A DNA stretch of 64,000 nucleotides from an uncultured bacterium (lineage in GTDB: Bacteria; Patescibacteriota; Patescibacteriia; Magasanikbacterales; UBA922). Both the position numbers and the translations under genes were made by a program. Numbering within the stretch: the first letter of the stretch is position 1; every line of letters begins with the position of its first letter. The stretch spans positions 68,941 to 132,940 of the forward strand of contig CALMAY010000037.1 in NCBI GenBank assembly GCA_937861125.1, in the 5' to 3' direction. Below the pieces are notes generated by a model. That model searched no databases, was not told where the DNA came from, and saw nothing but the letters and a program-made list of their open reading frames with translations. Positions 3,744 to 55,736 of this stretch are shown here, piece after piece.

Positions 3744-3758
3744 TCCTCTGCACAGGCA

Positions 3759-3786
3759 TTGACAACTCTCTCTTTACTAAGATAAG
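3759..3786 (+). promoter_or_regulatory. Cassette promoter P1 (decayed copy)
   Basis: CATTGACA followed by (CT)4 TTTAC TAAGAT. It aligns with P2-P4, but the -35/-10 spacer is only 13 nt. Confidence 0.35.
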
Positions 3787-3824
3787 CTTGTGTTCATCTG
3801 TTTCACAAGAACAAAGGAAGGAAA

Positions 3825-3911
3825 ATGGAAGATATCTGGACTACACTCAAACTCGTACTTTTGCTTTTTTTCATTCTTGCTGTATGGTCAGCAATCAGAG
3901 CAGGAGACTAG
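3825..3911 (+). CDS. 28-aa hydrophobic peptide (MEDIWTTLKLVLLLFFILAVWSAIRAGD)
   Basis: The ATG is preceded by AAAGGAAGGAAA. One TM-like segment. It sits between cassette promoter P1 and terminator T1 and is below the ORF-track cutoff. Confidence 0.45.
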   Translation: MEDIWTTLKLVLLLFFILAVWSAIRAGD

Positions 3912-3931
3912 TACGAGAAGGGCATGAACAG

Positions 3932-4004
3932 CCGTTCGACCCTCGCGCATAGTTTCCAAAATTATTGGTTACTGTGTGGGAGGATTTGGTCGAGCGGTTT
4001 TTTT
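3932..4004 (+). terminator. Conserved bulged terminator hairpin T1
   Basis: Lower stem is CCGTTCGACC/GGTCGAGCGG, upper stem is CTCGCGCA/TGTGGGAG, with a 3'-side bulge GATTT and a T7 run. Confidence 0.75.
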
Positions 4005-4026
4005 GTTATTTATCCACTTCTAGGCA

Positions 4027-4055
4027 TTGACAACTCTCTCTCTCTTTGCTAGAAT
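4027..4055 (+). promoter_or_regulatory. Cassette promoter P2
   Basis: TTGACA (4027-4032), a 17-nt spacer made of A(CT)6TTGC, then TAGAAT (4050-4055). Confidence 0.7.
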
Positions 4056-4082
4056 GAGTTTTCCTTCAACCACCAGGTAAAC

Positions 4083-4175
4083 ATGATAGCAGCCATCATC
4101 ATCGCCTACTCAGTAGGCTTCGGATCCGGGCTGCTGCTCGGATTTGGGATTTGTTTAATTTTTGTCAAAAGATGA
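4083..4175 (+). CDS. 30-aa hydrophobic peptide (MIAAIIIAYSVGFGSGLLLGFGICLIFVKR)
   Basis: Short ORF between P2 and T2. The RBS is weak. A G8 tract (4180-4187) follows the stop. Confidence 0.4.
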   Translation: MIAAIIIAYSVGFGSGLLLGFGICLIFVKR

Positions 4176-4196
4176 GGCAGGGGGGGGAACGAACAA

Positions 4197-4269
4197 CTGC
4201 TCGACCCTCACGCAATATATTCAATATCTGTTGAGTGTGCTGCGGGAGGATTTGGTCGAGCGGTTTTTT
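4197..4269 (+). terminator. Conserved bulged terminator hairpin T2
   Basis: Lower stem is CTGCTCGACC/GGTCGAGCGG, upper stem is CTCACGCA/TGCGGGAG, with bulge GATTT and a T6 run. Confidence 0.75.
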
Positions 4270-4273
4270 GTTT

Positions 4274-6995: not shown

Positions 6996-7259
6996 AGTGA
7001 CTCTATTGTACGGGGTTATGAGGAAAGAGTAAAGCTGGCTAAAGGTTCTGAAGGTACTAAAGATGCTCATGGTGCTGCCCACGAAAATATCGCTAGAAAC
7101 ATCAGTATCTTTGAATACCTTTAGAAGCCTTATACAACAAACAATCCCCCATTGTGCATAACATATGTGGATAACTTTTGCATAACTTTTCTATATATCA
7201 GTCCCTTACATATATTCTGTCCTACACTCAGCCAAAAACATCTTCACATTACCCAGATT

Positions 7260-10413: not shown

Positions 10414-11424
10414 ATGAACAACTCAGGAATTCTCAACAATTCAACAGTTGACCCAAACAAAATTCTCCCCATGAGATATAAATGGGCACGTGAATACTAC
10501 AAAGCGGGTGTCGCCAACAACTGGACACCAGAAGAAGTGCCAATGATGGATGATATAGAGCTCTGGAAAAAAACCCCAGATCGTGGCGGTCTCTCACCTG
10601 ACGAACGTCGCATGATTCTCTGGAATCTCGGCTTCTTTTCCACTGCTGAGAGTCTTACCGCCAACAACATTGTCCTCGCAGTCTACCGTCACGTGACCAA
10701 TCCAGAATGCCGCCAATACCTTCTGCGTCAGGCATTTGAGGAATCCATCCACACAGACATGTTTATCTACGCCTGTGACTCACTTGGACTTGACCCAGAC
10801 GAGATATACAACATGTACTTTACGATCCCAAGTATCAAAGCCAAAGATGACTTTGTCATTGAAATGACTCAATCAATCTTGCAACCAACGTTTGAAACCA
10901 AAACACCAGAGGATGTACAACGATTTGTCCATGATCTCGTCGGATACTATGTGATCATGGAGGGTATCTTCTTCTACGCTGGATTTGCGATGATGCTCAA
11001 CATGCTGCGCAACCACAAGATGATTGGTGTAGGTGAACAGTTCCAATACACACTTCGTGATGAAAGTATCCACCTCGCATTTGGCTCAGACTTGATCAAC
11101 ACGATTGTGCAGGAAAATCCTGAAATCTGGACAGCAGAGTTCCAAGCTGATTTGGTACAAAAAATCAAAAAAGCAGTCGACCTCGAGGACGCATACGCTC
11201 GCGATGCACTCCCTGTAGGTATCATGGGTATGAATCCTACTATCATCCGTGAATACCTCGAACACATCGCCGATCGCCGTCTCGAACGCATCGGCCTACC
11301 AAAACAATACGGTACCGCCAACCCATTTCCATGGATGAGTGAAATCGTTGACCTCAAGAAAGAAAAGAACTTCTTTGAGACTCGTGTGACTGAGTACCAG
11401 ACTGCTGGAAATCTCGAGTGGTAA
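10414..11424 (+). CDS. nrdB: Ribonucleoside-diphosphate reductase beta subunit
   Basis: Di-iron ligand motifs EESIHTD and RDESIHL. It follows nrdA by 11 nt. Confidence 0.95.
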   Translation: MNNSGILNNSTVDPNKILPMRYKWAREYYKAGVANNWTPEEVPMMDDIELWKKTPDRGGLSPDERRMILWNLGFFSTAESLTANNIVLAVYRHVTNPECRQYLLRQAFEESIHTDMFIYACDSLGLDPDEIYNMYFTIPSIKAKDDFVIEMTQSILQPTFETKTPEDVQRFVHDLVGYYVIMEGIFFYAGFAMMLNMLRNHKMIGVGEQFQYTLRDESIHLAFGSDLINTIVQENPEIWTAEFQADLVQKIKKAVDLEDAYARDALPVGIMGMNPTIIREYLEHIADRRLERIGLPKQYGTANPFPWMSEIVDLKKEKNFFETRVTEYQTAGNLEW

Positions 11425-11440
11425 ACTAGTCTAAAAATAC

Positions 11441-11468
11441 AAAAAACCGCTAAATCTAGCGGTTTTTT
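11441..11468 (+). terminator. Intrinsic terminator after nrdB
   Basis: A6, hairpin CCGCTA-aatc-TAGCGG, then T6. Confidence 0.8.
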
Positions 11469-11490
11469 GTTATTTATCCACTATCAAACA

Positions 11491-11517
11491 TTGACAACTC
11501 TCTCTCTTTGCTATAAT
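11491..11517 (+). promoter_or_regulatory. Cassette promoter P3
   Basis: TTGACA, a 15-nt spacer A(CT)5TTGC, then TATAAT. The upstream block GTTATTTATCCACT is shared with P2. Confidence 0.7.
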
Positions 11518-11573
11518 CAGCTGTTCCTCATGCAATTCGACAATTCCGTCGAAGAGGGACGTAAGAAGAAACA

Positions 11574-11831
11574 ATGAATCCTGGTCCTGATGACGTCGTG
11601 GCATGGGTGTGTCTTCTGGTCATCCTCTGTGGTGTCGTGGGCGGGTTGGTACACGCCTACACCCAAAACAATCACTTATGGGAACAGTTGATCGACAGCA
11701 CCCCCGAAGAAAAAAAGGGGGTCATTGAAGAAAGACGGAAAGAAAGCACACACACTACAACTAGTACCTGGTCGACTGTACTCATCGCTTTCATTGTCCT
11801 CTTTTTTGTACGCGCTGGCTGCATCGCGTAA
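11574..11831 (+). CDS. 85-aa two-TM small membrane protein
   Basis: An ORF-track entry lying between P3 and T3. It has N- and C-terminal hydrophobic helices and a charged middle. Confidence 0.55.
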   Translation: MNPGPDDVVAWVCLLVILCGVVGGLVHAYTQNNHLWEQLIDSTPEEKKGVIEERRKESTHTTTSTWSTVLIAFIVLFFVRAGCIA

Positions 11832-11877
11832 AGGGCCGCCCCTGGTAGGCTCGCCCACCGAGTTTCGGCACAATCAA

Positions 11878-11947
11878 CCGTTCGACCCTCGCGCAATATA
11901 TTTACTTTGTGAATATATTGCGGGAGGATTTGGTCGAGCGGTTTTTT
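11878..11947 (+). terminator. Conserved bulged terminator hairpin T3
   Basis: Lower stem is CCGTTCGACC/GGTCGAGCGG, upper stem is CTCGCGCAATATATT/AATATATTGCGGGAG, with bulge GATTT and a T6 run. Confidence 0.75.
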
Positions 11948-12191
11948 GTTATCTAAATAATACCCACTAAACACGTTCCCTCCTCTCGTAAAGGAGGGAC
12001 AGGGAGGAGTTACACTCACTATCTGGCACACGATAAACGCTACAGACACCCCTAACCCTTCCCTACTAAGGAGAAGAACGTATTTAGTTTATTTTGATAC
12101 AAAACACACTTCATACATCACAAACAAAATATTATCTTCTATACGAAATACGTTGTACGAAATACACCAAAAATGGTACAATACACGCACT

Positions 12192-13910
12192 ATGCTGCAG
12201 CCAAAACTATTTTCATCACTGCTTGAAAGTGTATTTGTATTAACACCCGAACAAATTGCACAATATCAAGAAGCAGCAGACAAGCTCAAGAAACCACTTG
12301 AGCTGTATTTGCGTGAAGAAAAAATAATTGATGAAGAAAAATTATATACTGCCGCAGCACAAACTCTCGGTAAACAACTCATCACACTGCGTGATAAAGA
12401 TATTACCGAAGACATACTCCACCTCATCCCCGTCACCCTCGCCGAGACACATCAACTCATCGCCTACGAAAAAACCGATACTACTATATCACTCGCCATG
12501 CTTGATCCTGAGGACATGCAAACGATTGAGTTTATCCATCGCAAAACGGGTCTGATGCCAACAGTTGTCATGAGTACACCGAGTGAGATGAAAGAAGCGC
12601 TCAAGAGATATCACATGAACGTCAAAGAGGATCTGACATTTCTCAAAGAGACACCAAGTGAACCAGGAGACCTCAAAAAAGCAGCAGAGGAACTCCCAGT
12701 AGTTCGTGTCGTCAACTCTATCCTCGAACATGCTATTTACGAGGGAGGAAGTGATATCCATATCGAACCACACGAGACAGAAGTAATTGTTCGCTACCGC
12801 ATTGATGGTGAACTCAAAGAAGTGATGAACCTCCCAAAGACTATTGCAGCAGGTATCATTGCTCGTATCAAGATTTTGAGCAATCTCAAAATCGATGAAC
12901 ATATGATCCCCCAAGACGGTCGCTTCAAAACAAAAATTGATGAGGAGTCGTTTGCATTTCGTGTCTCCACCATCCCAGTATATGACGGAGAAAAGATCGT
13001 CATGCGTATTCTCAGAGAGGGACAAAAACCGCTTTCATTGGACCAGCTCGGATTTCTCCCAGAACCACGTAAACTTCTCGAAGAGGCGATGGGAAAACCA
13101 CATGGGATGATCCTCGTCACAGGACCAACAGGAAGTGGAAAGACCACTACACTCTACTCAGTACTTGGTATTCTCAATACCCCAGATGTAAATATCTCCA
13201 CAGTAGAAGATCCAATCGAATATCACGTCGCTGGTATCAACCAAAGTCAGATCAACCCTCGCGTCAACTACACATTTGCAGCCGGTCTACGTGCTTTTCT
13301 TCGTCAAGATCCAGATATCATTATGGTCGGAGAAATCCGTGACGAGGAGACAGCAGAGGTCGCCGTACATGCCGCCATGACAGGACACCTCGTGCTCTCA
13401 ACTCTGCACACCAACGACGCACCAACGACCCTTCCTCGTCTGATGGATATGGGTATTCCACCATTTCTCGTCGCCTTTACTGCAAATATTATTATCGCAC
13501 AACGTTTAGTTCGAAAAATCTGCCAATACTGCAAAGTAGAATATCAAATGACCAAAGGTGAAATAGAAGAGTTAGAAAAAACATTCAAGACGGATGAAAT
13601 GGCTAAACTATTTACTGCGCACGGTATCAAACTCCCTGCTAAAGAAAAAAATCTTTCCTCCATGACGTTTTATCGCGGTGAAGGATGCAGTAAATGCAAC
13701 AAAAGCGGATACAAAGGACGCCTAGGAATATATGAAGTACTCTCAGTGGACAAAGATATCGCCAAACTCATCAATGAACGAGCGACTGCACGCGAGATCG
13801 GAGACTTTGCCAAAAGTCACGGAATGGTAACCATCTTACAAGACGGTTTGATCAAAGCGAAACAAGGTATCACTACAGTAGAAGAAGTACTGAGTGCAAC
13901 TCGTGAATAA
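12192..13910 (+). CDS. pilB: Type IV pilus assembly ATPase PilB (GspE family)
   Basis: Walker A GPTGSGKTT, Asp/His boxes, and the tetracysteine CxxC...CxxC. ATG 12192 is chosen because of the adjacent extended -10. Confidence 0.9.
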   Translation: MLQPKLFSSLLESVFVLTPEQIAQYQEAADKLKKPLELYLREEKIIDEEKLYTAAAQTLGKQLITLRDKDITEDILHLIPVTLAETHQLIAYEKTDTTISLAMLDPEDMQTIEFIHRKTGLMPTVVMSTPSEMKEALKRYHMNVKEDLTFLKETPSEPGDLKKAAEELPVVRVVNSILEHAIYEGGSDIHIEPHETEVIVRYRIDGELKEVMNLPKTIAAGIIARIKILSNLKIDEHMIPQDGRFKTKIDEESFAFRVSTIPVYDGEKIVMRILREGQKPLSLDQLGFLPEPRKLLEEAMGKPHGMILVTGPTGSGKTTTLYSVLGILNTPDVNISTVEDPIEYHVAGINQSQINPRVNYTFAAGLRAFLRQDPDIIMVGEIRDEETAEVAVHAAMTGHLVLSTLHTNDAPTTLPRLMDMGIPPFLVAFTANIIIAQRLVRKICQYCKVEYQMTKGEIEELEKTFKTDEMAKLFTAHGIKLPAKEKNLSSMTFYRGEGCSKCNKSGYKGRLGIYEVLSVDKDIAKLINERATAREIGDFAKSHGMVTILQDGLIKAKQGITTVEEVLSATRE

Positions 13911-25830: not shown

Positions 25831-28800
25831 TTACGATAGCTTTGTTGGTGAAACATCTGAAGGCGCCTCCCCTTTCTTCAAACCTACATCTTTTACCACC
25901 AAACCATTCTCTTCTTTTACCACCACAGAATCTGTTTTTTCTGGAACATATCCCTCTTTTTCAAACGTAACATAGTAATCATTTGGTCCAACCAAAAATG
26001 AATACCGCCCTTTACTATCTGTTACTTGCGTCGCAACTAACTTATCAAACTGTTTGCTAAATAAACGTGCCACAGCTCTCCCGACAGGCTGTGCCGTCCC
26101 ATGTTCATAGACCAACCCCCACCCTTTTGGTTTCTTTGGCCACACGTATCGTAAAAAGAGTACAAACAAAACGGTGTGAATGACTAAAAAGACAACAGTA
26201 AGTACCGATGGCGTAATATAGACAGAGATGACTGCACCCACAATACTAACAATCGCCACAGTATGTTGCAATCGACGCAACCATTTTTCCAACACAATTC
26301 GCTTGATCGTTTTTTCTTTTGCGTCCACTGGATCCACTGGAATATTTGGTGTGATTTGAGTATCTTTTTCATCGACTCGAATTGACTCACCATGGTAAAT
26401 ATCAAGAAATGATCCGTCTTCTTTTACACTTGAAAGTAGATGAGTCGGAAACACATACCCCTGTTTAAACACCTCAATTAAGTACTGCCCAGGCTCTACC
26501 ATAAAAAGATATCGCCCCTTGGCATCAGTCACACGAGACTGAACCACTCGTCCTGTTGTCTTGTCTATCAGGCGGATAGTCGCCAAATCAATCGGAAGTT
26601 TATTTAAACTGTTATACACCACACCCCAAGCCTGACGCTTCCTTTTTCCCACCAAATACAGTGGCTGCAAAAAGAGAAAACGAAGTAACGGTAACAAAAT
26701 TGAAAACAATGATGGAATCAATGTGGCAGCTGAGACACCAACAAACGTCGGTGCAACAACTGTTTGTACCGCTTCTTCCACACGTGGATCATCCTTTTTT
26801 TCCAGTACATCCCGTGCTCCTTGCAGTGCGGTATTGAGTACAAACCCGATCGTCTCCACTGGTGTTTCTGGTAGGGCCAGCAGTTCAAGTGAACGATTAA
26901 TAACATGATCTGTCACTTGAAATGAAAACGTCTTTCGCTGTGCATACCCACCTTTATCTACAACGAGTGTGTACACTCCGTTTGGAACAACAAAACCATA
27001 GGTACCAGAAGAATCTGTACGAAATGGATTACTCTGACGAAATGATGTAATGTCAAATACTGTATCTCCTGCATACAAAGAAACATTCGCATCAGCAAGA
27101 CGTACACGCTCTGTGTCGGAAATAATACCAAACGGAGCACTCTCGACTTGAAACGGTACAACATCTACTAAACCTTCTGCATAAAATATTTCAATCGTCG
27201 CGTCATATCGACCAACAGGAGGAAATAATACATCCGAACGATACATTCCGTCAGCTTCTCGTGTGAGAGCATATCGCTGTCCACGCAACACCAATACCAA
27301 TGTTGTTGACGGTGTAATATGATGGAGACTTCCCTCAGAGATACCGACAGTCAACTGATCTCCCGTTAAACTTTTTACGACCCCCTGTGTTGGCACCACC
27401 TCAATAGTGCGTTCAGCAATCCAATACCTTGTTGTGGTAACATGATCCGTCACGGTTACGTTTGGTGAATTATATTCATCATTGTCTGTCGCAGAAGAAC
27501 AGCCTGGGTCTTGTAAATCGACCAATCCATCTCCATCATTATCAGCTCCATCTGAACAAGCAAATACACCACGACATGCTGGCTCTCCAGCACAGTCAGG
27601 ATCAGAACAATCAATCAGACTATCACCATCATCATCAACACCATTGGTGCACTGCTCTACACCATTTGGTGGCACACCAGTACACCCAGACACATCAAAT
27701 ATACAGGCACCACCACAACTCAGCGATCCACCAGCATACCCACGACTCACACATGATGCACCACCCAGATCAGAGCCATCACATTGCTCAACCCCGCTGC
27801 GGATCACATTATCACCACATATCGCTGCCTGACACAAATTTGTACAACTATCATTTTGATTGTTATTTCCGTCATCACACGTCTCACCTACATTGACAAT
27901 ACTGTTGCCACAAGTAGCCAGCGCATTCGTACACGATGATACATTAAATGTGCACGAATTACTACAACTCAGTGATCCGCCATCATAGCCACGACTCACA
28001 CACGTCGCACCATTCAAGTTCGTGCCATCACACTGCTCTCCACTTTCAACAATATTATTTCCGCACACTGATGTTTCCACTACACCACTTGGCGTCGCAT
28101 TTGCACAGACACCAGCACTTGCATTGCCAGATGTGTCATACACAGAGAGACGATAATAATATGTTGTACTATTTGTCAGTCCAGCATGTTGTATACTCAA
28201 CTGAGCAACAGATGCAATGTTTTGTAATAACGCCCCCGCACCACGTGCAGGACAGCTACCAAGTGACCATTCGATACGGTAGTAGGCAAAATCACTCACA
28301 CTCTCACTATATTGCCATGACAAATTGTTAGCAGCAACCACACCATTTGCCGTGAATGAAGATACATCTGGTGGCGGTGTCGAATCTGACAACGTAATAA
28401 ATGGACACTCAGCTGTTCCTATCTCATTATTGGAATCAATACACGTAATACGACACTGATACGCCATATTTGGTGTCAGTCCACTAAGTGTGGATTGATA
28501 TGAACCACTGACGACACCGATCGAGATATAATTGCCAACACCATATCCAAGTGTACAACTGACAATACTTTTTGGGATGGTTGTCGAAGCATCCCAAACA
28601 ATCTGAGCACTAGTCTGTGTGGTTGAGGTAGAAATCAACGTAACAGTAACAGACGAGGACTCACTAATAGTAACAAAAGACCCAGTCTCACTATCACTAT
28701 TACCGGATGTATCACTACAGGAAATGTGATAAAAATATTCTGTGGAAGCACTTAAACCTGCCAAAGAGACAGTATATGTTCCCACCACAGTACCACTTGT

Positions 28801-29190
28801 TCCATAACCGTCTGTTAACCCATACTCAAATGAACACGATGAGACACTCACGTTATCGCTCGCACTCCAAGAAACACTCGATGTAGTAACACCGACAACT
28901 TCCACCACATTTGAGATAGATGGATTGGTGGTATCCCCGCCTCCACCACCACAAGTGCGTGTCGTACATGACAAACTACATGTTGCTGGACAACTACTTC
29001 CATTGCTTCCACCATTGTCACAGGCTTCGACACCTTCCTCTATACCATTGCCACACACCGCACCAGTCCCAACTATTGCCTCAATCGTCACATCAGTTGA
29101 TGTTGTATCAGCAGAAACAAAAGAGACAAAGCCAACAAATACAGAGACAATGAGAAAGAAAAAGGATGTACCAAATAGAATACGTTTCAT
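25831..29190 (-). CDS. 1119-aa multidomain membrane-anchored surface protein
   Basis: Signal peptide (MKRILFG...), then CGNG..E.CD cysteine-rich repeats. These are followed by FN3-like modules, DxDGD metal-binding-like repeats, and three carboxypeptidase-regulatory-like domains (DAKGRY/DSKGRY) interleaved with TM helices. The start ATG overlaps the upstream stop (ATGA). Confidence 0.8.
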   Translation of the reverse strand: MKRILFGTSFFFLIVSVFVGFVSFVSADTTSTDVTIEAIVGTGAVCGNGIEEGVEACDNGGSNGSSCPATCSLSCTTRTCGGGGGDTTNPSISNVVEVVGVTTSSVSWSASDNVSVSSCSFEYGLTDGYGTSGTVVGTYTVSLAGLSASTEYFYHISCSDTSGNSDSETGSFVTISESSSVTVTLISTSTTQTSAQIVWDASTTIPKSIVSCTLGYGVGNYISIGVVSGSYQSTLSGLTPNMAYQCRITCIDSNNEIGTAECPFITLSDSTPPPDVSSFTANGVVAANNLSWQYSESVSDFAYYRIEWSLGSCPARGAGALLQNIASVAQLSIQHAGLTNSTTYYYRLSVYDTSGNASAGVCANATPSGVVETSVCGNNIVESGEQCDGTNLNGATCVSRGYDGGSLSCSNSCTFNVSSCTNALATCGNSIVNVGETCDDGNNNQNDSCTNLCQAAICGDNVIRSGVEQCDGSDLGGASCVSRGYAGGSLSCGGACIFDVSGCTGVPPNGVEQCTNGVDDDGDSLIDCSDPDCAGEPACRGVFACSDGADNDGDGLVDLQDPGCSSATDNDEYNSPNVTVTDHVTTTRYWIAERTIEVVPTQGVVKSLTGDQLTVGISEGSLHHITPSTTLVLVLRGQRYALTREADGMYRSDVLFPPVGRYDATIEIFYAEGLVDVVPFQVESAPFGIISDTERVRLADANVSLYAGDTVFDITSFRQSNPFRTDSSGTYGFVVPNGVYTLVVDKGGYAQRKTFSFQVTDHVINRSLELLALPETPVETIGFVLNTALQGARDVLEKKDDPRVEEAVQTVVAPTFVGVSAATLIPSLFSILLPLLRFLFLQPLYLVGKRKRQAWGVVYNSLNKLPIDLATIRLIDKTTGRVVQSRVTDAKGRYLFMVEPGQYLIEVFKQGYVFPTHLLSSVKEDGSFLDIYHGESIRVDEKDTQITPNIPVDPVDAKEKTIKRIVLEKWLRRLQHTVAIVSIVGAVISVYITPSVLTVVFLVIHTVLFVLFLRYVWPKKPKGWGLVYEHGTAQPVGRAVARLFSKQFDKLVATQVTDSKGRYSFLVGPNDYYVTFEKEGYVPEKTDSVVVKEENGLVVKDVGLKKGEAPSDVSPTKLS

Positions 29191-30101
29191 ACAGCACGAG
29201 CACGGCGGTGCATTATACCAAAAAATCCAACCAAGATAAGAATAAGTACCATCACACCAACCCACGCAACTGGTGGCATAAACCAAAACGTAGTACCGCC
29301 ATATACCATTTGTTTTTCAATTCCATATTGTATGACGACTGTCGCACTAAGTGGTCCGATTGCACGCCAAGAGAGATCATTGATTGAAAGTGAATCATTT
29401 TTTTTCATCCCAGCATAGACACGACTCATACCCTCACCCAGTGGTGCTCGATATACCACACGATCACTCATGGTAGTAATAATCAACTCACCGACATATG
29501 GTGAAACCACTGTCCCCGCATTGTACAATCCAACATCAATAGTAGGTGCGTCAAAAGAAAAAAATGATGACGGGGTCATATACTCAATCTGCAAATCCTC
29601 TGTCACTACACCACCCACAGTGAGAAATACCAATGTTCCCACTCGCGCACCCAGACCCACATTACCCTCAGATTGATTCACCTCTTGTGCAAAAACACCC
29701 ACATAATATGTCTGAGGTGCTTCACCATTCGGAACACGAACTGTCGCGACTACCTCTCGTCGTTGTCCTGGTACCAACGTAAACGTGTCACCAGACACAA
29801 ATGACACCCATCGCGTTGCTGGTGTTATTTGCCCAAACACAGGACGACTGGTCACTGCATCGACTACAAATCCATCCACGTTCATACGATACGTCTTTTC
29901 CTGATCAGTATCGTTGGTTACCGTAAACGCAACATCCTGCGACATACCCGGATCTACTACAATAGTATGCTTGAGTGGTGAAATAGCAATAGCGTGTACA
30001 AATAATGCGGAATGTAAAATGCAAAATGCAGAAATAAAAAAAGAAGCCAAAAATACTATTTTGGAATTTGGAATTTGGAATTTGGAATTTTCAAACATCA
30101 T
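29187..30101 (-). CDS. Secreted Ig-like protein with a C-terminal TM anchor (CscA/DUF916-DUF3324-like architecture)
   Basis: Signal peptide, a roughly 240-aa beta-rich ectodomain, and a single C-terminal TM with a basic tail (HRRARAV). The family assignment rests on architecture only. Confidence 0.65.
   Translation of the reverse strand: MMFENSKFQIPNSKIVFLASFFISAFCILHSALFVHAIAISPLKHTIVVDPGMSQDVAFTVTNDTDQEKTYRMNVDGFVVDAVTSRPVFGQITPATRWVSFVSGDTFTLVPGQRREVVATVRVPNGEAPQTYYVGVFAQEVNQSEGNVGLGARVGTLVFLTVGGVVTEDLQIEYMTPSSFFSFDAPTIDVGLYNAGTVVSPYVGELIITTMSDRVVYRAPLGEGMSRVYAGMKKNDSLSINDLSWRAIGPLSATVVIQYGIEKQMVYGGTTFWFMPPVAWVGVMVLILILVGFFGIMHRRARAV
30061..30088. repeat. Perfect heptanucleotide tandem repeat (TTGGAAT)x4
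   Basis: Read directly from the sequence. It lies in codons 5-14 of the 29187..30101 gene, between the ATG and the signal-peptide core. Confidence 0.95.
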
Positions 30102-44195: not shown

Positions 44196-44226
44196 AAAAA
44201 ACCACCCAAAGAACGGGTGGTTTTTT
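44196..44226 (+). terminator. Terminator after the ATP-grasp gene
   Basis: A5, hairpin CCACCC-aaagaac-GGGTGG, then T6. Confidence 0.8.
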
Positions 44227-44242
44227 GTTCCACTTTTAAGCA

Positions 44243-44271
44243 TTGACATCTCTCTCTCTCTTTGCTAATCT
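44243..44271 (+). promoter_or_regulatory. Cassette promoter P4
   Basis: CATTGACA, a 17-nt spacer T(CT)6TTGC, then TAATCT (weak -10). Confidence 0.5.
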
Positions 44272-44302
44272 AATAATTAACCAGCTAGAGCCACGGAGGA
44301 AT

Positions 44303-44602
44303 ATGAGCAAATCATATGTGAACGTCAAAATCGACCATCTTGATTTCTTCAATCTTTTCGAGGAATTTCTAGAAACGGAAAACCAATACGTTCGCATCTA
44401 TCGGCGACCCATTGGACAAGAAGGTGGGAGTGGAAGGTTTACAATCAGAGGGAAAGAGTACCCATCGATCAAACTCTTTAGACATAGAGAATACTGCACA
44501 ATCGGTGACCACGAAGAATTCGCAACACGAGTTCATGAAGTAGTTGCTGCTTTTCTGCAGTTTCTCGACAAGAGAGGCATAACGTACACCATACTTGACT
44601 AA
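44303..44602 (+). CDS. 99-aa hypothetical soluble protein (cassette 4 cargo)
   Basis: ATG 44303 is preceded by GGAGGA. No recognisable motif. Confidence 0.6.
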   Translation: MSKSYVNVKIDHLDFFNLFEEFLETENQYVRIYRRPIGQEGGSGRFTIRGKEYPSIKLFRHREYCTIGDHEEFATRVHEVVAAFLQFLDKRGITYTILD

Positions 44603-44630
44603 TCTCATAGTAGGCGTTGTGGAATAAAAA

Positions 44631-44706
44631 TCCACCCGATCCTGCCAATGTATTCGAATGATCGAATGTATTGGGAGGAGGCTAACGGGTGGGTTTTTAT
44701 TTTTTG
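44631..44706 (+). terminator. Bulged terminator hairpin T4 (structural homolog of T1-T3)
   Basis: Lower stem is CCACCCG/CGGGTGG. The upper 17-bp stem is CCTGCCAATGTATTCGA/TCGAATGTATTGGGAGG with one G/G mismatch. There is a 3' bulge AGGCTAA, then T5AT7. Confidence 0.7.
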
Positions 44707-53331: not shown

Positions 53332-53577
53332 CCTGTGGATAGTGTGCATATATATGTGTAAAAACATGAGCAAAACCCTGTGGAAATACTTCTAATAAGT
53401 GCAGAGAGTTATACAGACTATCCACACTGATACAGAAAAAACAATCTCTCCACACACCATCTCCCAATTCATCCACAGAGATATAAAGTAATTATTTCTC
53501 TCAACAGAGATAAAAAGATACGTTATACAGATTATCCACAGTACAACTATCTACTATTAGTTAATATATATACTTAT
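53332..53577. other. oriC (DnaA-box cluster plus AT-rich unwinding element)
   Basis: The boxes are:
- CTATCCACA as its complement at 53334-53342
- CTATCCACA at 53418-53426
- TCATCCACA at 53469-53477
- perfect TTATCCACA at 53532-53540
TTATACAGA appears twice. The AT-rich tract TATTAGTTAATATATATACTTAT lies next to the dnaN start. Confidence 0.8.
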
Positions 53578-55054: not shown

Positions 55055-55432
55055 GTGCTTCAAAAAGAAAACCGCCTTACTCGAAAACGTGATTTTGAAA
55101 TTCTCTTCAAAGAGGGTCGTTTTGTGCCGGGCACACTAACGACGATGAAGTATTGGAAAGTACAACCGGAAAAATATCCGAAGCGCGGGTACAATACGGC
55201 GGATCTCAAAATTGGTTTTATTGTCTCAGCAAAATTTAGCAAAAAGGCAGTCGATCGAAACCGAGTAAAACGACAAATGCGTGAAGTGGTTCGTTTACTT
55301 CTCAAAGAAAACAAAATTCCCGTTGGATATATGATTGCAATTATGGTGAAAAACGAGATGCTTGGGAAAGAGTATGGGGAGATAGAGAAAAGTATCGTGC
55401 AGATGTTGAAGCGTGCTAATTTGTTCATGTAA
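55055..55432 (+). CDS. rnpA: RNase P protein component
   Basis: GTG start. LTRKRDFEILFKEG... and the RNR motif (AVDRNRVKRQMRE). Confidence 0.85.
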   Translation: MLQKENRLTRKRDFEILFKEGRFVPGTLTTMKYWKVQPEKYPKRGYNTADLKIGFIVSAKFSKKAVDRNRVKRQMREVVRLLLKENKIPVGYMIAIMVKNEMLGKEYGEIEKSIVQMLKRANLFM

Positions 55433-55488
55433 CATGTAGCACAAAACATGTAACAAATATAAATGTGTTACATGTTATATGTTACATG
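55426..55488. repeat. Four copies of CATGTAACA (two direct, two inverted) between rnpA and yidD
   Basis: Direct copies are at 55426-55434 and 55447-55455. Inverted copies (TGTTACATG) are at 55466-55474 and 55480-55488. The array overlaps the rnpA stop and the yidD start. Confidence 0.75.
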
Positions 55489-55736
55489 ATGTTTTTCTAA
55501 TATCACGACGAATCGTGCTACGATGCATTCGTCTTTACCAAAAATTCCTCTCTCCAGATCATAGTTTTTGGGCCAAACATATTCACCCAATTGGATACTG
55601 CAAATTCACGCCTACATGCTCTGAGTATGGATACACGTCTATTGAACGCTACGGAGTGGTTCGTGGTGGTCTACGGGCACTGTGGCGCGTTCTACGGTGT
55701 AATCCATGGAGTAGGGGTGGCGAGGATTTACCATAA
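55479..55736 (+). CDS. yidD: Membrane protein insertion efficiency factor YidD
   Basis: YQKFLSP...CKFTPTCSEYGYTSIERYG...RCNPW. Confidence 0.85.
   Translation: MLHDVFLISRRIVLRCIRLYQKFLSPDHSFWAKHIHPIGYCKFTPTCSEYGYTSIERYGVVRGGLRALWRVLRCNPWSRGGEDLP

Follow-up and report, generated by a model that had tools for sequence, protein, structure and literature searches.

The 64-kb stretch of DNA considered here (the window) comes from the core chromosome of a Patescibacteria bacterium and carries efp, ruvB, nrdAB, pilBCM, polA, dnaA, dnaN, and the genes for a penicillin-binding protein and trigger factor. Magasanikbacteria are the nearest named relatives of this host; the best named relatives of its PilB come from Magasanikbacteria and other Patescibacteria, at 61-68% identity. 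Between nrdB and pilB, within 40 kb of dnaA, lies an interval (11441-11947) that comprises a predicted promoter, a leader, a gene for an orphan protein of 85 residues, and a large hairpin followed by a U-tract. A first-pass annotation of the window described this interval as the third copy of a cassette, with a cargo gene of its own; the other two copies stand in tandem after efp. This view of a third copy is borne out, as the same modules flank other unrelated genes both in the window, where a fourth promoter copy (44241/44243) adds to the three loci already recognized, and in five related genomes. The units of the window are referred to below as cassettes 1 to 4, with the interval after nrdB as cassette 3, their promoter module as P_CT, and their hairpins as T1 to T4 (Table 1).

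The DNA compared consists of the window and short pieces of the five related genomes. These five (L093, L094, L100, L101, and L106) form a closer clade, and a more distant group (L096-L099) has NrdB proteins that are 83-85% identical. A metagenome contig, L085, and a near-identical contig, L102, complete the set.

Modules of the nrdB-pilB cassette

Cassette 3 begins at the bidirectional intrinsic terminator of nrdB, the T-run of which doubles as the start of the conserved promoter module. This terminator is kept in L093, L094, and L100, and the more distant relatives also have a simple terminator at the homologous position. In the promoter that follows, the -35 and extended -10 elements are separated by 15 nt containing (CT)5, rather than by the 17 nt first annotated, and it was because of this 15-nt TTGACA-TATAAT spacer that a consensus scan missed it. 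Transcription is predicted to start at about 11523-11525. The promoter had been called nearly identical to the junction between T1 and the promoter of cassette 2, a slightly generous wording for a similarity that nevertheless reaches well beyond the two hexamers: between 11457-11517 and 3992-4055, 56 of 65 columns are identical (86%). The differences amount to 1 nt in the T-run, one (CT) unit, four substitutions and two 1-nt indels between CCACT and CATTGACA, one base in the -10 element, and one at the first aligned position. The sequence CATTGACAACTCTCTCT, with up to two mismatches allowed, occurs four times in the window (at 3757, 4025, 11489, and 44241) against an expectation of 0.02, and for the promoter copies of cassettes 1 and 4 the identity is 66-70%. 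TTGACA, a CT tract, and TTTGCTA come together only in cassette promoters, four times in the window and seven times in five related genomes, and nowhere else in about 1.1 Mb of fetched DNA; the housekeeping promoters of the window are plain extended -10 sites. Across the copies the spacers measure 13, 15, or 17 nt, in CT steps, with tracts of (CT)4-6. At the position after nrdB alone, the spacer is 15 nt in the window, 13 in L093, 15 in L094, 17 in L100, and 15 in the first cassette of L101 (L101-A).

The module also includes an upstream element, in which TTATCCACT (11474-11482) matches the DnaA box TTATCCACA at 8 of 9 positions; the efp promoter copy of L093 has TTATCCACA exactly and the L085 copy has TTATACACA. 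The element may act as an UP element or as a DnaA site. In the cassette promoters the sequence TTATCCACT stands about 10 nt upstream of the -35 element. With at most one mismatch, 32 DnaA boxes are present in the window against 22.5±4.6 expected, and because this enrichment is weak the DnaA-box reading of TTATCCACT is kept as a remark only. Canonical boxes, that is TTATCCACA and its one-mismatch variants, form a pair upstream of nrdA (7153-7174) and a cluster at 53334-53540, in the dnaA-dnaN spacer, which is likely oriC.

At the other end of the cassette, a 3' untranslated region (UTR) of 44 nt leads into T3. Its basal stem measures 12 bp, GGGAG is followed on the 3' side by a bulge of 5 nt (GAUUU), there is a G.G mismatch, and the AT-rich apex is variable. 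Apart from the apex the hairpin is nearly identical to T1 and T2, as had been noticed at the outset: the two arms agree at 20/21 and 28/30 positions with T1 and at 18/21 and 30/30 with T2 (86-100%), whereas the apices are 42-65% identical and are still paired. All three hairpins fold at -42 to -46 kcal/mol, with z-scores from -6.5 to -9.9, and the arm 26-mer GGAGGATTTGGTCGAGCGGTTTTTTG has three copies in the window (0-1 mismatch) where none is expected. Together with the copies in L085 and L100, T1 to T3 make up family Ta. When these five sequences are aligned, 95.8% of cells are paired, against about 40% in slid controls, and five pairs carry compensatory changes, a number reached by 0 of 500 shuffles. 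The non-Watson-Crick pairs include 12 G.U and 1 A.C, and therefore the pairing is maintained in the sense-strand transcript. These observations point to a hairpin that works as sense RNA, which is expected of a terminator but not of a DNA cruciform or an antisense RNA. T3 combines a stable GC-rich hairpin with a directly adjoining U-tract, the hallmark of intrinsic termination, and the prediction is of a strong terminator of this type, which would insulate pilB.

Three more hairpin families, unrelated to Ta in sequence, are found in the clade: one is formed by T4 and the hairpin of the second L101 cassette (Tc), another by those of the first L101 cassette and of the L093 nrdB cassette (Tb), and the last by that of the L093 efp cassette. 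What they share is an architecture, consisting of a basal stem of 7-13 bp, a 3'-only bulge of 5-8 nt, a variable AT-rich apex, and a U-tract, generally accompanied by a GGAGG-like run before the bulge (most families) and usually by a purine-purine mismatch. Since sequences that are alike only in architecture are beyond alignment with MAFFT, the families were compared by folding every T-run region with RNAfold. Among 4,525 T-runs in about 1 Mb of fetched DNA, the bulged form was seen only in loci of this clade and, within the window, only in T1-T4. Rfam reported nothing but seven tRNAs when the whole window was scanned at the gathering threshold, and an E-value scan of 11400-12250 gave only sub-threshold matches, all on the nrdB terminator. 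The hairpin 23-mer has no match in GTDB species genomes and the 19-mer none in viral contigs. Of 11 matches to the 19-mer in JGI metagenomes, L085 is the sole real one, the other ten being chance matches inside unrelated GC-rich genes.

Four of the five hairpin types share a purine run resembling a Shine-Dalgarno (SD) sequence (GGGAGGA, GGGAGGAGG, GAAGGAGGA, or GUAGGAGG), which stands in the 3' arm immediately ahead of the bulge. Examples lie at 11918-11930 and 44672-44686 of the window, partly paired to the CCUC of the 5' arm.

The leader between promoter and gene is predicted to form a stem-loop, after which comes a weak, purine-rich ribosome-binding site. Its folding energy is not significant alone (z = 0.17), and the support for the structure is a two-sequence comparison, in which the homologous leader of L085 has the same predicted fold with a compensatory inner stem (CAGC/GCUG). 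The 15-codon upstream open reading frame (uORF) reported in the first-pass annotation, and its ATGA overlap with the main ATG at 11574, are indeed present. The coupling or regulation proposed for it, in contrast, finds no support: the uORF lacks an SD sequence, and its start, about 6-7 nt from the predicted 5' end, falls within the leader stem-loop; the L085 leader keeps both stem-loop and ribosome-binding region but has CAC AAA in place of the uORF ATG; and upstream ATGs are expected by chance in 50-nt leaders. The uORF is probably incidental and not functional.

The cargo gene encodes a protein in which a charged loop (5 K/R, 7 D/E) separates two predicted transmembrane (TM) segments. A single-sequence AlphaFold model (AF2) has helices at residues 5-42 and 45-84, with a mean local confidence (pLDDT) of 73 and a global score (pTM) of 0.44, and is consistent with, though not decisive for, a membrane hairpin. 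No homologue of the protein was found in 5.8 billion clusters (word-indexed search) or in 1.84 billion representatives (full phmmer search), and comparison with Pfam, PHROGs, PADLOC, NCBIfam, and PDB sequences returned only the protein itself or sub-threshold noise. It is also unrelated to the 28- and 30-residue peptides of cassettes 1 and 2 on BLASTP comparison, as had been stated. The open reading frame (ORF) is the longest that starts with ATG and takes up 73% of the transcribed interval (shuffle p=0.013). In all ten cassettes tested the cargo ORFs are likewise the longest and fill 60-87% of the interval from promoter to hairpin, for a Fisher combined probability of 9e-12. The codon log-likelihood ratio, 0.125 per codon, is well above that of spurious ORFs (mean -0.20±0.20). 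Its GC content of 0.50, and 0.56 at third codon positions (GC3), compares with 0.43±0.03 and 0.36±0.06 for the long ORFs of the window. Because its length exceeds chance, the ORF is probably coding, and its origin is probably foreign or recent. The idea of an 85-residue protein with two TM helices thus holds as far as sequence allows, given the ORF length, the two hydrophobic helices, and the helical hairpin of the model.

Table 1. Positions of the cassettes and their parts in the window, and occupants of the nrdB slot
Feature	Position	Strand	Description
nrdB bidirectional intrinsic terminator	11439-11470	+	Stem CCGCT/AGCGG between A-run and T-run; terminator scan, both strands
Upstream element TTTTTTGTTATTTATCCACT	11463-11490	+	Aligned in 8 cassette promoters
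Cassette 3 promoter P_CT	11491-11517	+	-35 TTGACA 11491-11496; extended -10 TGcTATAAT 11509-11517; consensus prediction
5' leader	11524-11573	+	Predicted stem-loop 11524-11559, UUCCUC...GAGGGA around UCGAC/GUCGA; then purine-rich AAGAAGAAACA
uORF MQFDNSVEEGRKKKQ	11530-11577	+	15 codons, stop TGA 11575-11577; overlaps main ATG 11574 as ATGA
Cargo gene, 85-residue orphan protein	11574-11831	+	Predicted two-helix membrane hairpin, TM ~7-29 and ~64-85
T3, bulged hairpin with U-tract (family Ta)	11876-11947	+	66-nt hairpin and U6; -45.6 kcal/mol, z = -9.9
Right flank GTTATCTAAATAATACCCACTAAACAC...	11948-11990	+	Repeats GCGGTTTTTTGTTAT...CCACT of left junction; weak resemblance
Cassette 1, after efp	3757-4004	+	P_CT; 28-residue TM peptide 3825-3911; T1 3932-3997 and T-run
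Cassette 2, tandem with cassette 1	3998-4270	+	TTGACA 4027, 17-nt spacer, TAGAAT; 30-residue TM peptide 4083-4175; T2 4197-4263 and T-run
Cassette 4	44202-44705	+	Upstream terminator CCACCC/GGGTGG; P_CT 44243; 99-residue soluble orphan gene 44303-44602; T4 44625-44699
nrdB slot, window			Predicted two-TM protein of 85 residues; hairpin Ta
nrdB slot, L093			71-residue cargo; hairpin Tb
nrdB slot, L094			Different hydrophobic peptide; contig ends
nrdB slot, L100 and L106			50-residue soluble, beta-rich protein; hairpin Ta with T2-like apex
nrdB slot, L101			Two cassettes, 91 residues (Tb) then 76 residues (Tc)

Slots and cargo in related genomes

The cassettes occupy fixed positions, or slots, beside core genes. 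In L096-L099 the whole gene order is kept and the nrdB and efp slots are empty, because the nrdB-pilB spacer is only 110-125 nt and the efp-DUF1294 spacer 64 nt. In the closer clade the nrdB slot always opens with a P_CT promoter, and the cargo behind it is unrelated between genomes (Table 1). BLASTN homology to the window ends at 11508-11524, that is at the -10 element or transcription start, and in L100 the alignment restarts at the hairpin. The efp slot holds two cassettes in the window, a different one (134 residues) in L093, and none in L100. A third slot, the ruvB-nrdA spacer, is empty in the window (7082-7127). The same spacer in L100 (4740-5090) contains a 58-residue TM gene and a hairpin 93% identical to T3, without the CT-type promoter, and in L093 (5600-6250) a 161-residue gene on the opposite strand. 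Further afield, in L085, the promoter is again the same, the leader is homologous to the cassette 3 leader as far as the ATG, and the hairpin is 92% identical. These modules surround a gene for a 150-residue soluble protein with an internal repeat conserved at the protein level; the unit lies between sufB-like and cysteine-desulfurase-like genes. It follows from these locus comparisons that promoter, leader, cargo, and hairpin variants occur in different combinations. In the empty efp slot of L100 (1955-2045), a stretch of about 50 nt that contains ATCAGGCGATTTTTTT can be aligned to the 3' part of a cassette hairpin and may be the scar of a cassette loss.

The cargo is the variable part throughout. 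Thirteen cargo proteins proved mutually unrelated in an all-against-all BLASTP comparison, and tBLASTN against all fetched DNA found nothing. Ten that were tested against family libraries gave no family match. When nine were looked up by exact sequence, six stood alone in their 90% cluster, one had a single near-identical partner, and two were absent from the collection. Most of the products are small membrane proteins, and 10 of 12 cargo genes are GC-richer than their host locus; cargo GC reaches 0.58 and cargo GC3 0.70, where the host has a GC3 of 0.36. A variant is available for just one cargo, the 150-residue protein of L085 and L102; among 1028 aligned bases these contigs show 2 differences, of which one is non-synonymous in this ORF, too few for a ratio of non-synonymous to synonymous substitution (dN/dS).

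Transfer is best documented by L100 and L106. These genomes are 78-92% identical in nrdB and pilB, and 95-100% identical over about 900 nt, from the end of nrdB across the complete cassette to 300 nt into pilB. The tract indicates that the cassette was recently transferred from one diverged lineage to another by homologous recombination, with the core genes on either side providing the homology.

Cassette 4 has a peculiarity of its own, in that it is flanked by the only two CCACCC...GGGTGG terminators of the window: T4, which belongs to family Tc and has the same architecture as the other hairpins, matches in its basal stem the terminator upstream of the cassette. A single-crossover insertion at a terminator would leave such a pattern, and the pattern is a hint of one. 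In cassette 3, the right flank may be a decayed second junction of terminator and promoter.

A number of other sequence features lie in the surroundings of the cassettes. Between T3 and the pilB promoter is an imperfect palindrome of about 110 nt (11973-12081) with CCCTCC/GGAGGG tracts, which folds better on the minus strand (-48.7 versus -34.6 kcal/mol). It is also present in L101 (1945-2033) and absent from L100 and L106; it has no Rfam match, and no other copy was seen in the fetched DNA. The promoter of pilB is an extended -10 site of its own at 12174-12182 (TGGTACAAT). The start codon (12192) comes only 10 nt after it, an arrangement kept in L100 and L101, which would make the pilB mRNA leaderless or nearly so. 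In L101 a palindrome of about 100 nt, ACGTCATTGCGAG...CTCGCAATGACGT, directly follows the nrdB stop codon (800-905, equivalent to L095 1490-1595) and is absent from the window. Two of the genomes, L094 (546-920) and L106 (1445-1837), have between nrdA and nrdB a gene for a protein of 124-130 residues with the bAvd/23S_rRNA_IVP fold, the accessory protein fold of diversity-generating retroelements; this gene is absent in the window, L093, and L100. Elsewhere in the window, a near-perfect AT-rich palindrome of 65 nt made of ACATGTAACATG repeats is found downstream of dnaN (55425-55489), and a 110-nt direct repeat (27680-27789 and 27929-28038, 75% identity) lies inside a 1151-residue ORF (25831-29286) that probably encodes a repetitive surface protein.

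Explanations for the cassettes

The explanation that we favor, and which we hold to be probable though well short of certain, is that 11441-11947 is a member of a lineage-specific family of autonomous, single-gene, moron-like expression cassettes with exchangeable orphan cargo. RNA polymerase would start at a strong promoter specific to the cassettes, the conserved module of TTGACA, (CT)n spacer, and extended -10, directly after the terminator of the preceding gene. The resulting mRNA would open with the 5' stem-loop and the weak purine-rich ribosome-binding site, from which the 85-residue orphan would be translated and inserted into the membrane as a two-helix hairpin. The bulged hairpin of about 66 nt, with its U-tract, would then end transcription, so that pilB would depend on a promoter of its own. 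Bacterial mRNAs are usually stabilized by structures of this kind, a stem-loop at the 5' end and a very stable hairpin at the 3' end. Promoter and terminator are reusable modules, and the gene between them is the variable part. Alleles would move between lineages via homologous recombination through the flanking core genes, and new combinations of promoter, cargo, and terminator would probably arise from recombination within the conserved modules. The (CT)n spacer, which changes in two-base steps, may tune or switch expression. As to the role of the 85-residue protein, our best guess would be an envelope or accessory function that is particular to the strain, for example in immunity, exclusion, or host contact.

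Several points weigh against this explanation. The promoter, the terminator, and the translation of cassette 3 are predictions from sequence, and the 15-nt spacer between its -35 and -10 elements is suboptimal. The codon score of the ORF lies below the 5th percentile of true genes (0.141). Purifying selection on it is not measurable and dN/dS is impossible, because the protein has no relatives. The tract shared by L100 and L106, the only direct evidence of transfer, concerns an allele other than that of the window, and it shows the transfer of an allele and not the first entry of a cassette into a slot.

A bolder reading, possible but doubtful in our estimation, would make P_CT and the bulged hairpins the standard ends of an undescribed gene-cassette system of the candidate phyla radiation (CPR). 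Orphans would come pre-packaged with a portable promoter and terminator, and the modules would double as homology arms or recombination sites for capture, stacking, and exchange at many terminator-proximal slots. Exchange would rely on natural transformation and recombination, or on an unknown recombinase. Such a system would have left its traces in the duplicated terminator of cassette 4 and in the way that promoter, leader, cargo, and hairpin variants are shuffled between loci.

The CT tract may also do more than set the spacing. Slipped-strand mispairing within it could render the cassettes phase-variable or tunable, so that small envelope proteins are turned on and off, which would be an addition to the moron-like cassette and not an alternative to it, and one that we think unlikely. 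A simple repeat of varying length between -35 and -10 is the arrangement known for phase-variable promoters, such as the TA repeat of Haemophilus influenzae hifA/hifB and the poly-G of Neisseria meningitidis porA (PMC3899988). The (CT)4-6 tract is placed in the same way, and as in hifA/hifB it is a dinucleotide tract that differs by two-base steps between copies, the orthologous nrdB slot included. However, four to six units are short for high-frequency slippage, and the extended -10 may relax the demand on -35 spacing. Moreover, the near-identical pairs L100/L106 and L085/L102 each show a single tract length.

If only the promoter and terminator modules were functional, the interval would produce a non-coding small RNA, or the ORF would be spurious or a young proto-gene. 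The lack of any homologue in the two large collections and the rapid turnover of cargo would fit such a locus, as would the low codon score, the atypical GC3, and the weak ribosome-binding site. The high GC3, though, fits foreign origin equally well. The length of the ORF in cassette 3, and still more the combined result over ten cassettes, speaks for coding, as do the two clean hydrophobic helices with a charged loop between them and the conservation of the L085 repeat at the protein level. We consider a non-coding cassette quite unlikely.

The hairpins invite comparison with integrons, in which they would be attC-like, single-stranded DNA sites at which a site-specific recombinase would capture and shuffle the cargo. 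As with integron cassettes (PMC5027507), diverse small orphan genes are each followed by an imperfect hairpin with unpaired bases, here in the form of a conserved base, a one-sided bulge of 5-8 nt, a purine-purine mismatch, and a variable apex. The modules are similar within the lineage, the arrays are short (one or two cassettes), and homology breaks at the module borders. Hairpin variants change slots, with a T3-like apex in the ruvB slot of L100 and a T2-like one in its nrdB slot, and the position of cassette 4 between two terminators of the same stem is what a Campbell-type insertion would give. On the other hand, an integron has an integrase gene (intI) with attI beside its array, and here no integrase, transposase, or recombinase was found among the approximately 30 window ORFs scanned against Pfam, out of 49 long ORFs in all. 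The R''/R' core sites (RYYYAAC and GTTRRRY) are also absent, the flanks being AATCAAC and GTTTTTT/GTTATCT, which are not mutually complementary. Every hairpin is followed by a U-tract, and the 12-to-1 excess of G.U pairs in the sense strand fits an RNA terminator. Integron cassettes are typically promoterless (PMC5027507) and expressed from a shared Pc promoter, whereas each of these has its own P_CT, and they are dispersed over several separate loci rather than gathered in one array. The documented transfer is, finally, explained by homologous recombination in the flanks. An integron-like system is accordingly very improbable.

Type I toxin-antitoxin loci, such as Ldr/Rdl, Ibs/Sib, and Zor/Orz, encode small hydrophobic peptides and are intergenic, sometimes tandem, and strain-variable, with structured UTRs. 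Were the cassettes of this kind, or carriers of small toxic membrane peptides, the flanking modules would be structured UTRs and an antisense RNA would control translation. Many of the cargos are indeed small and very hydrophobic (28, 30, 58, 76, 85, and 91 residues), cassettes 1 and 2 stand in tandem, the loci are intergenic and strain-variable, and the leader has 5' structure. Type I toxins are usually shorter than 60 residues, a size that the 28- and 30-residue peptides fit; the 85-residue protein is larger, and the same modules flank soluble proteins of 50, 99, 134, and 150 residues. An antisense RNA gene was not detected. On the minus strand, 11441-11950 contains neither a promoter-like site nor an extended -10, the hairpin pairs in sense RNA only, and Rfam antitoxin and antisense matches are far below threshold and fall on the nrdB terminator. 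With no conserved peptide family either, a toxin-antitoxin role would be most surprising.

That the similarity is merely generic to strong promoters and terminators, -35 and -10 elements, GC-rich stems, and T-runs being common to all of them, is refuted by the counts and has a negligible chance of being right: the 56 of 65 identical columns include the spacer and the upstream region, the hairpin 26-mer occurs three times where none is expected, and the motif is absent from housekeeping promoters and from the 1.1 Mb of other DNA. A repeat of the miniature inverted-repeat transposable element (MITE) or repetitive extragenic palindromic (REP) type was also considered and rejected, as the repeats stand on either side of a gene, the hairpin lies within the transcript, and there was no sign of terminal inverted repeats.

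Known systems and significance

Among the closest known systems is the phage moron of Hendrix and Juhala, a lone coding region that is equipped with a promoter and terminator of its own, lies between genes adjacent in relatives, differs in composition from its neighbors, and is present in one genome but absent or different in close relatives (PMC4378225). Three of the four defining features of phage morons are found in cassette 3, namely a predicted promoter and terminator of its own, insertion between neighboring genes, and deviant composition. In contrast to morons, the cassette lies in the core chromosome of a cellular organism, among nrdAB, efp, and pilB, rather than in phage or prophage DNA; its surroundings yielded no phage genes, the window neighbors being efp, ruvB, nrdAB, pilBCM, polA, dnaA, and dnaN. 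The conservation and reuse of promoter and terminator as modules is likewise no part of the moron concept. Putative mobile promoters, described by Matus-Garcia, Nijveen, and van Passel in 2012, are stretches of 50-100 nt upstream of non-homologous genes with at least 80% identity (PMC3488235). Cassettes 2 and 3 qualify, with 86% over 65 columns, and cassettes 1 and 4, at 66-70%, fall below the cut-off. Putative mobile promoters, however, are promoters only, whereas P_CT is coupled to a matching family of 3' hairpins and marks slots in which the cargo is replaced between strains.

A full-text search of the literature found no description of such cassettes in Patescibacteria, in which a promoter and a terminator architecture, both reused, enclose orphan cargo that can be exchanged at fixed slots. 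The genomes of CPR bacteria are tiny, and orphans that lack an explanation make up most of the genes specific to a strain. For some of these orphans a recurring package is now apparent, with one promoter type, one terminator architecture, and fixed slots beside core genes, in which the cargo changes from one otherwise syntenic genome to another. The promoter and the very stable bulged terminator would be candidate parts for the genetics of Patescibacteria, for which tools are scarce. If the pattern extends genome-wide, it would provide a sequence signature for finding accessory and probably highly expressed small proteins, many of them perhaps in the membrane. The cassettes would then be natural, modular, plug-and-play expression units, and would offer a tractable case for the origin and spread of orphan genes in bacteria that depend on DNA uptake.

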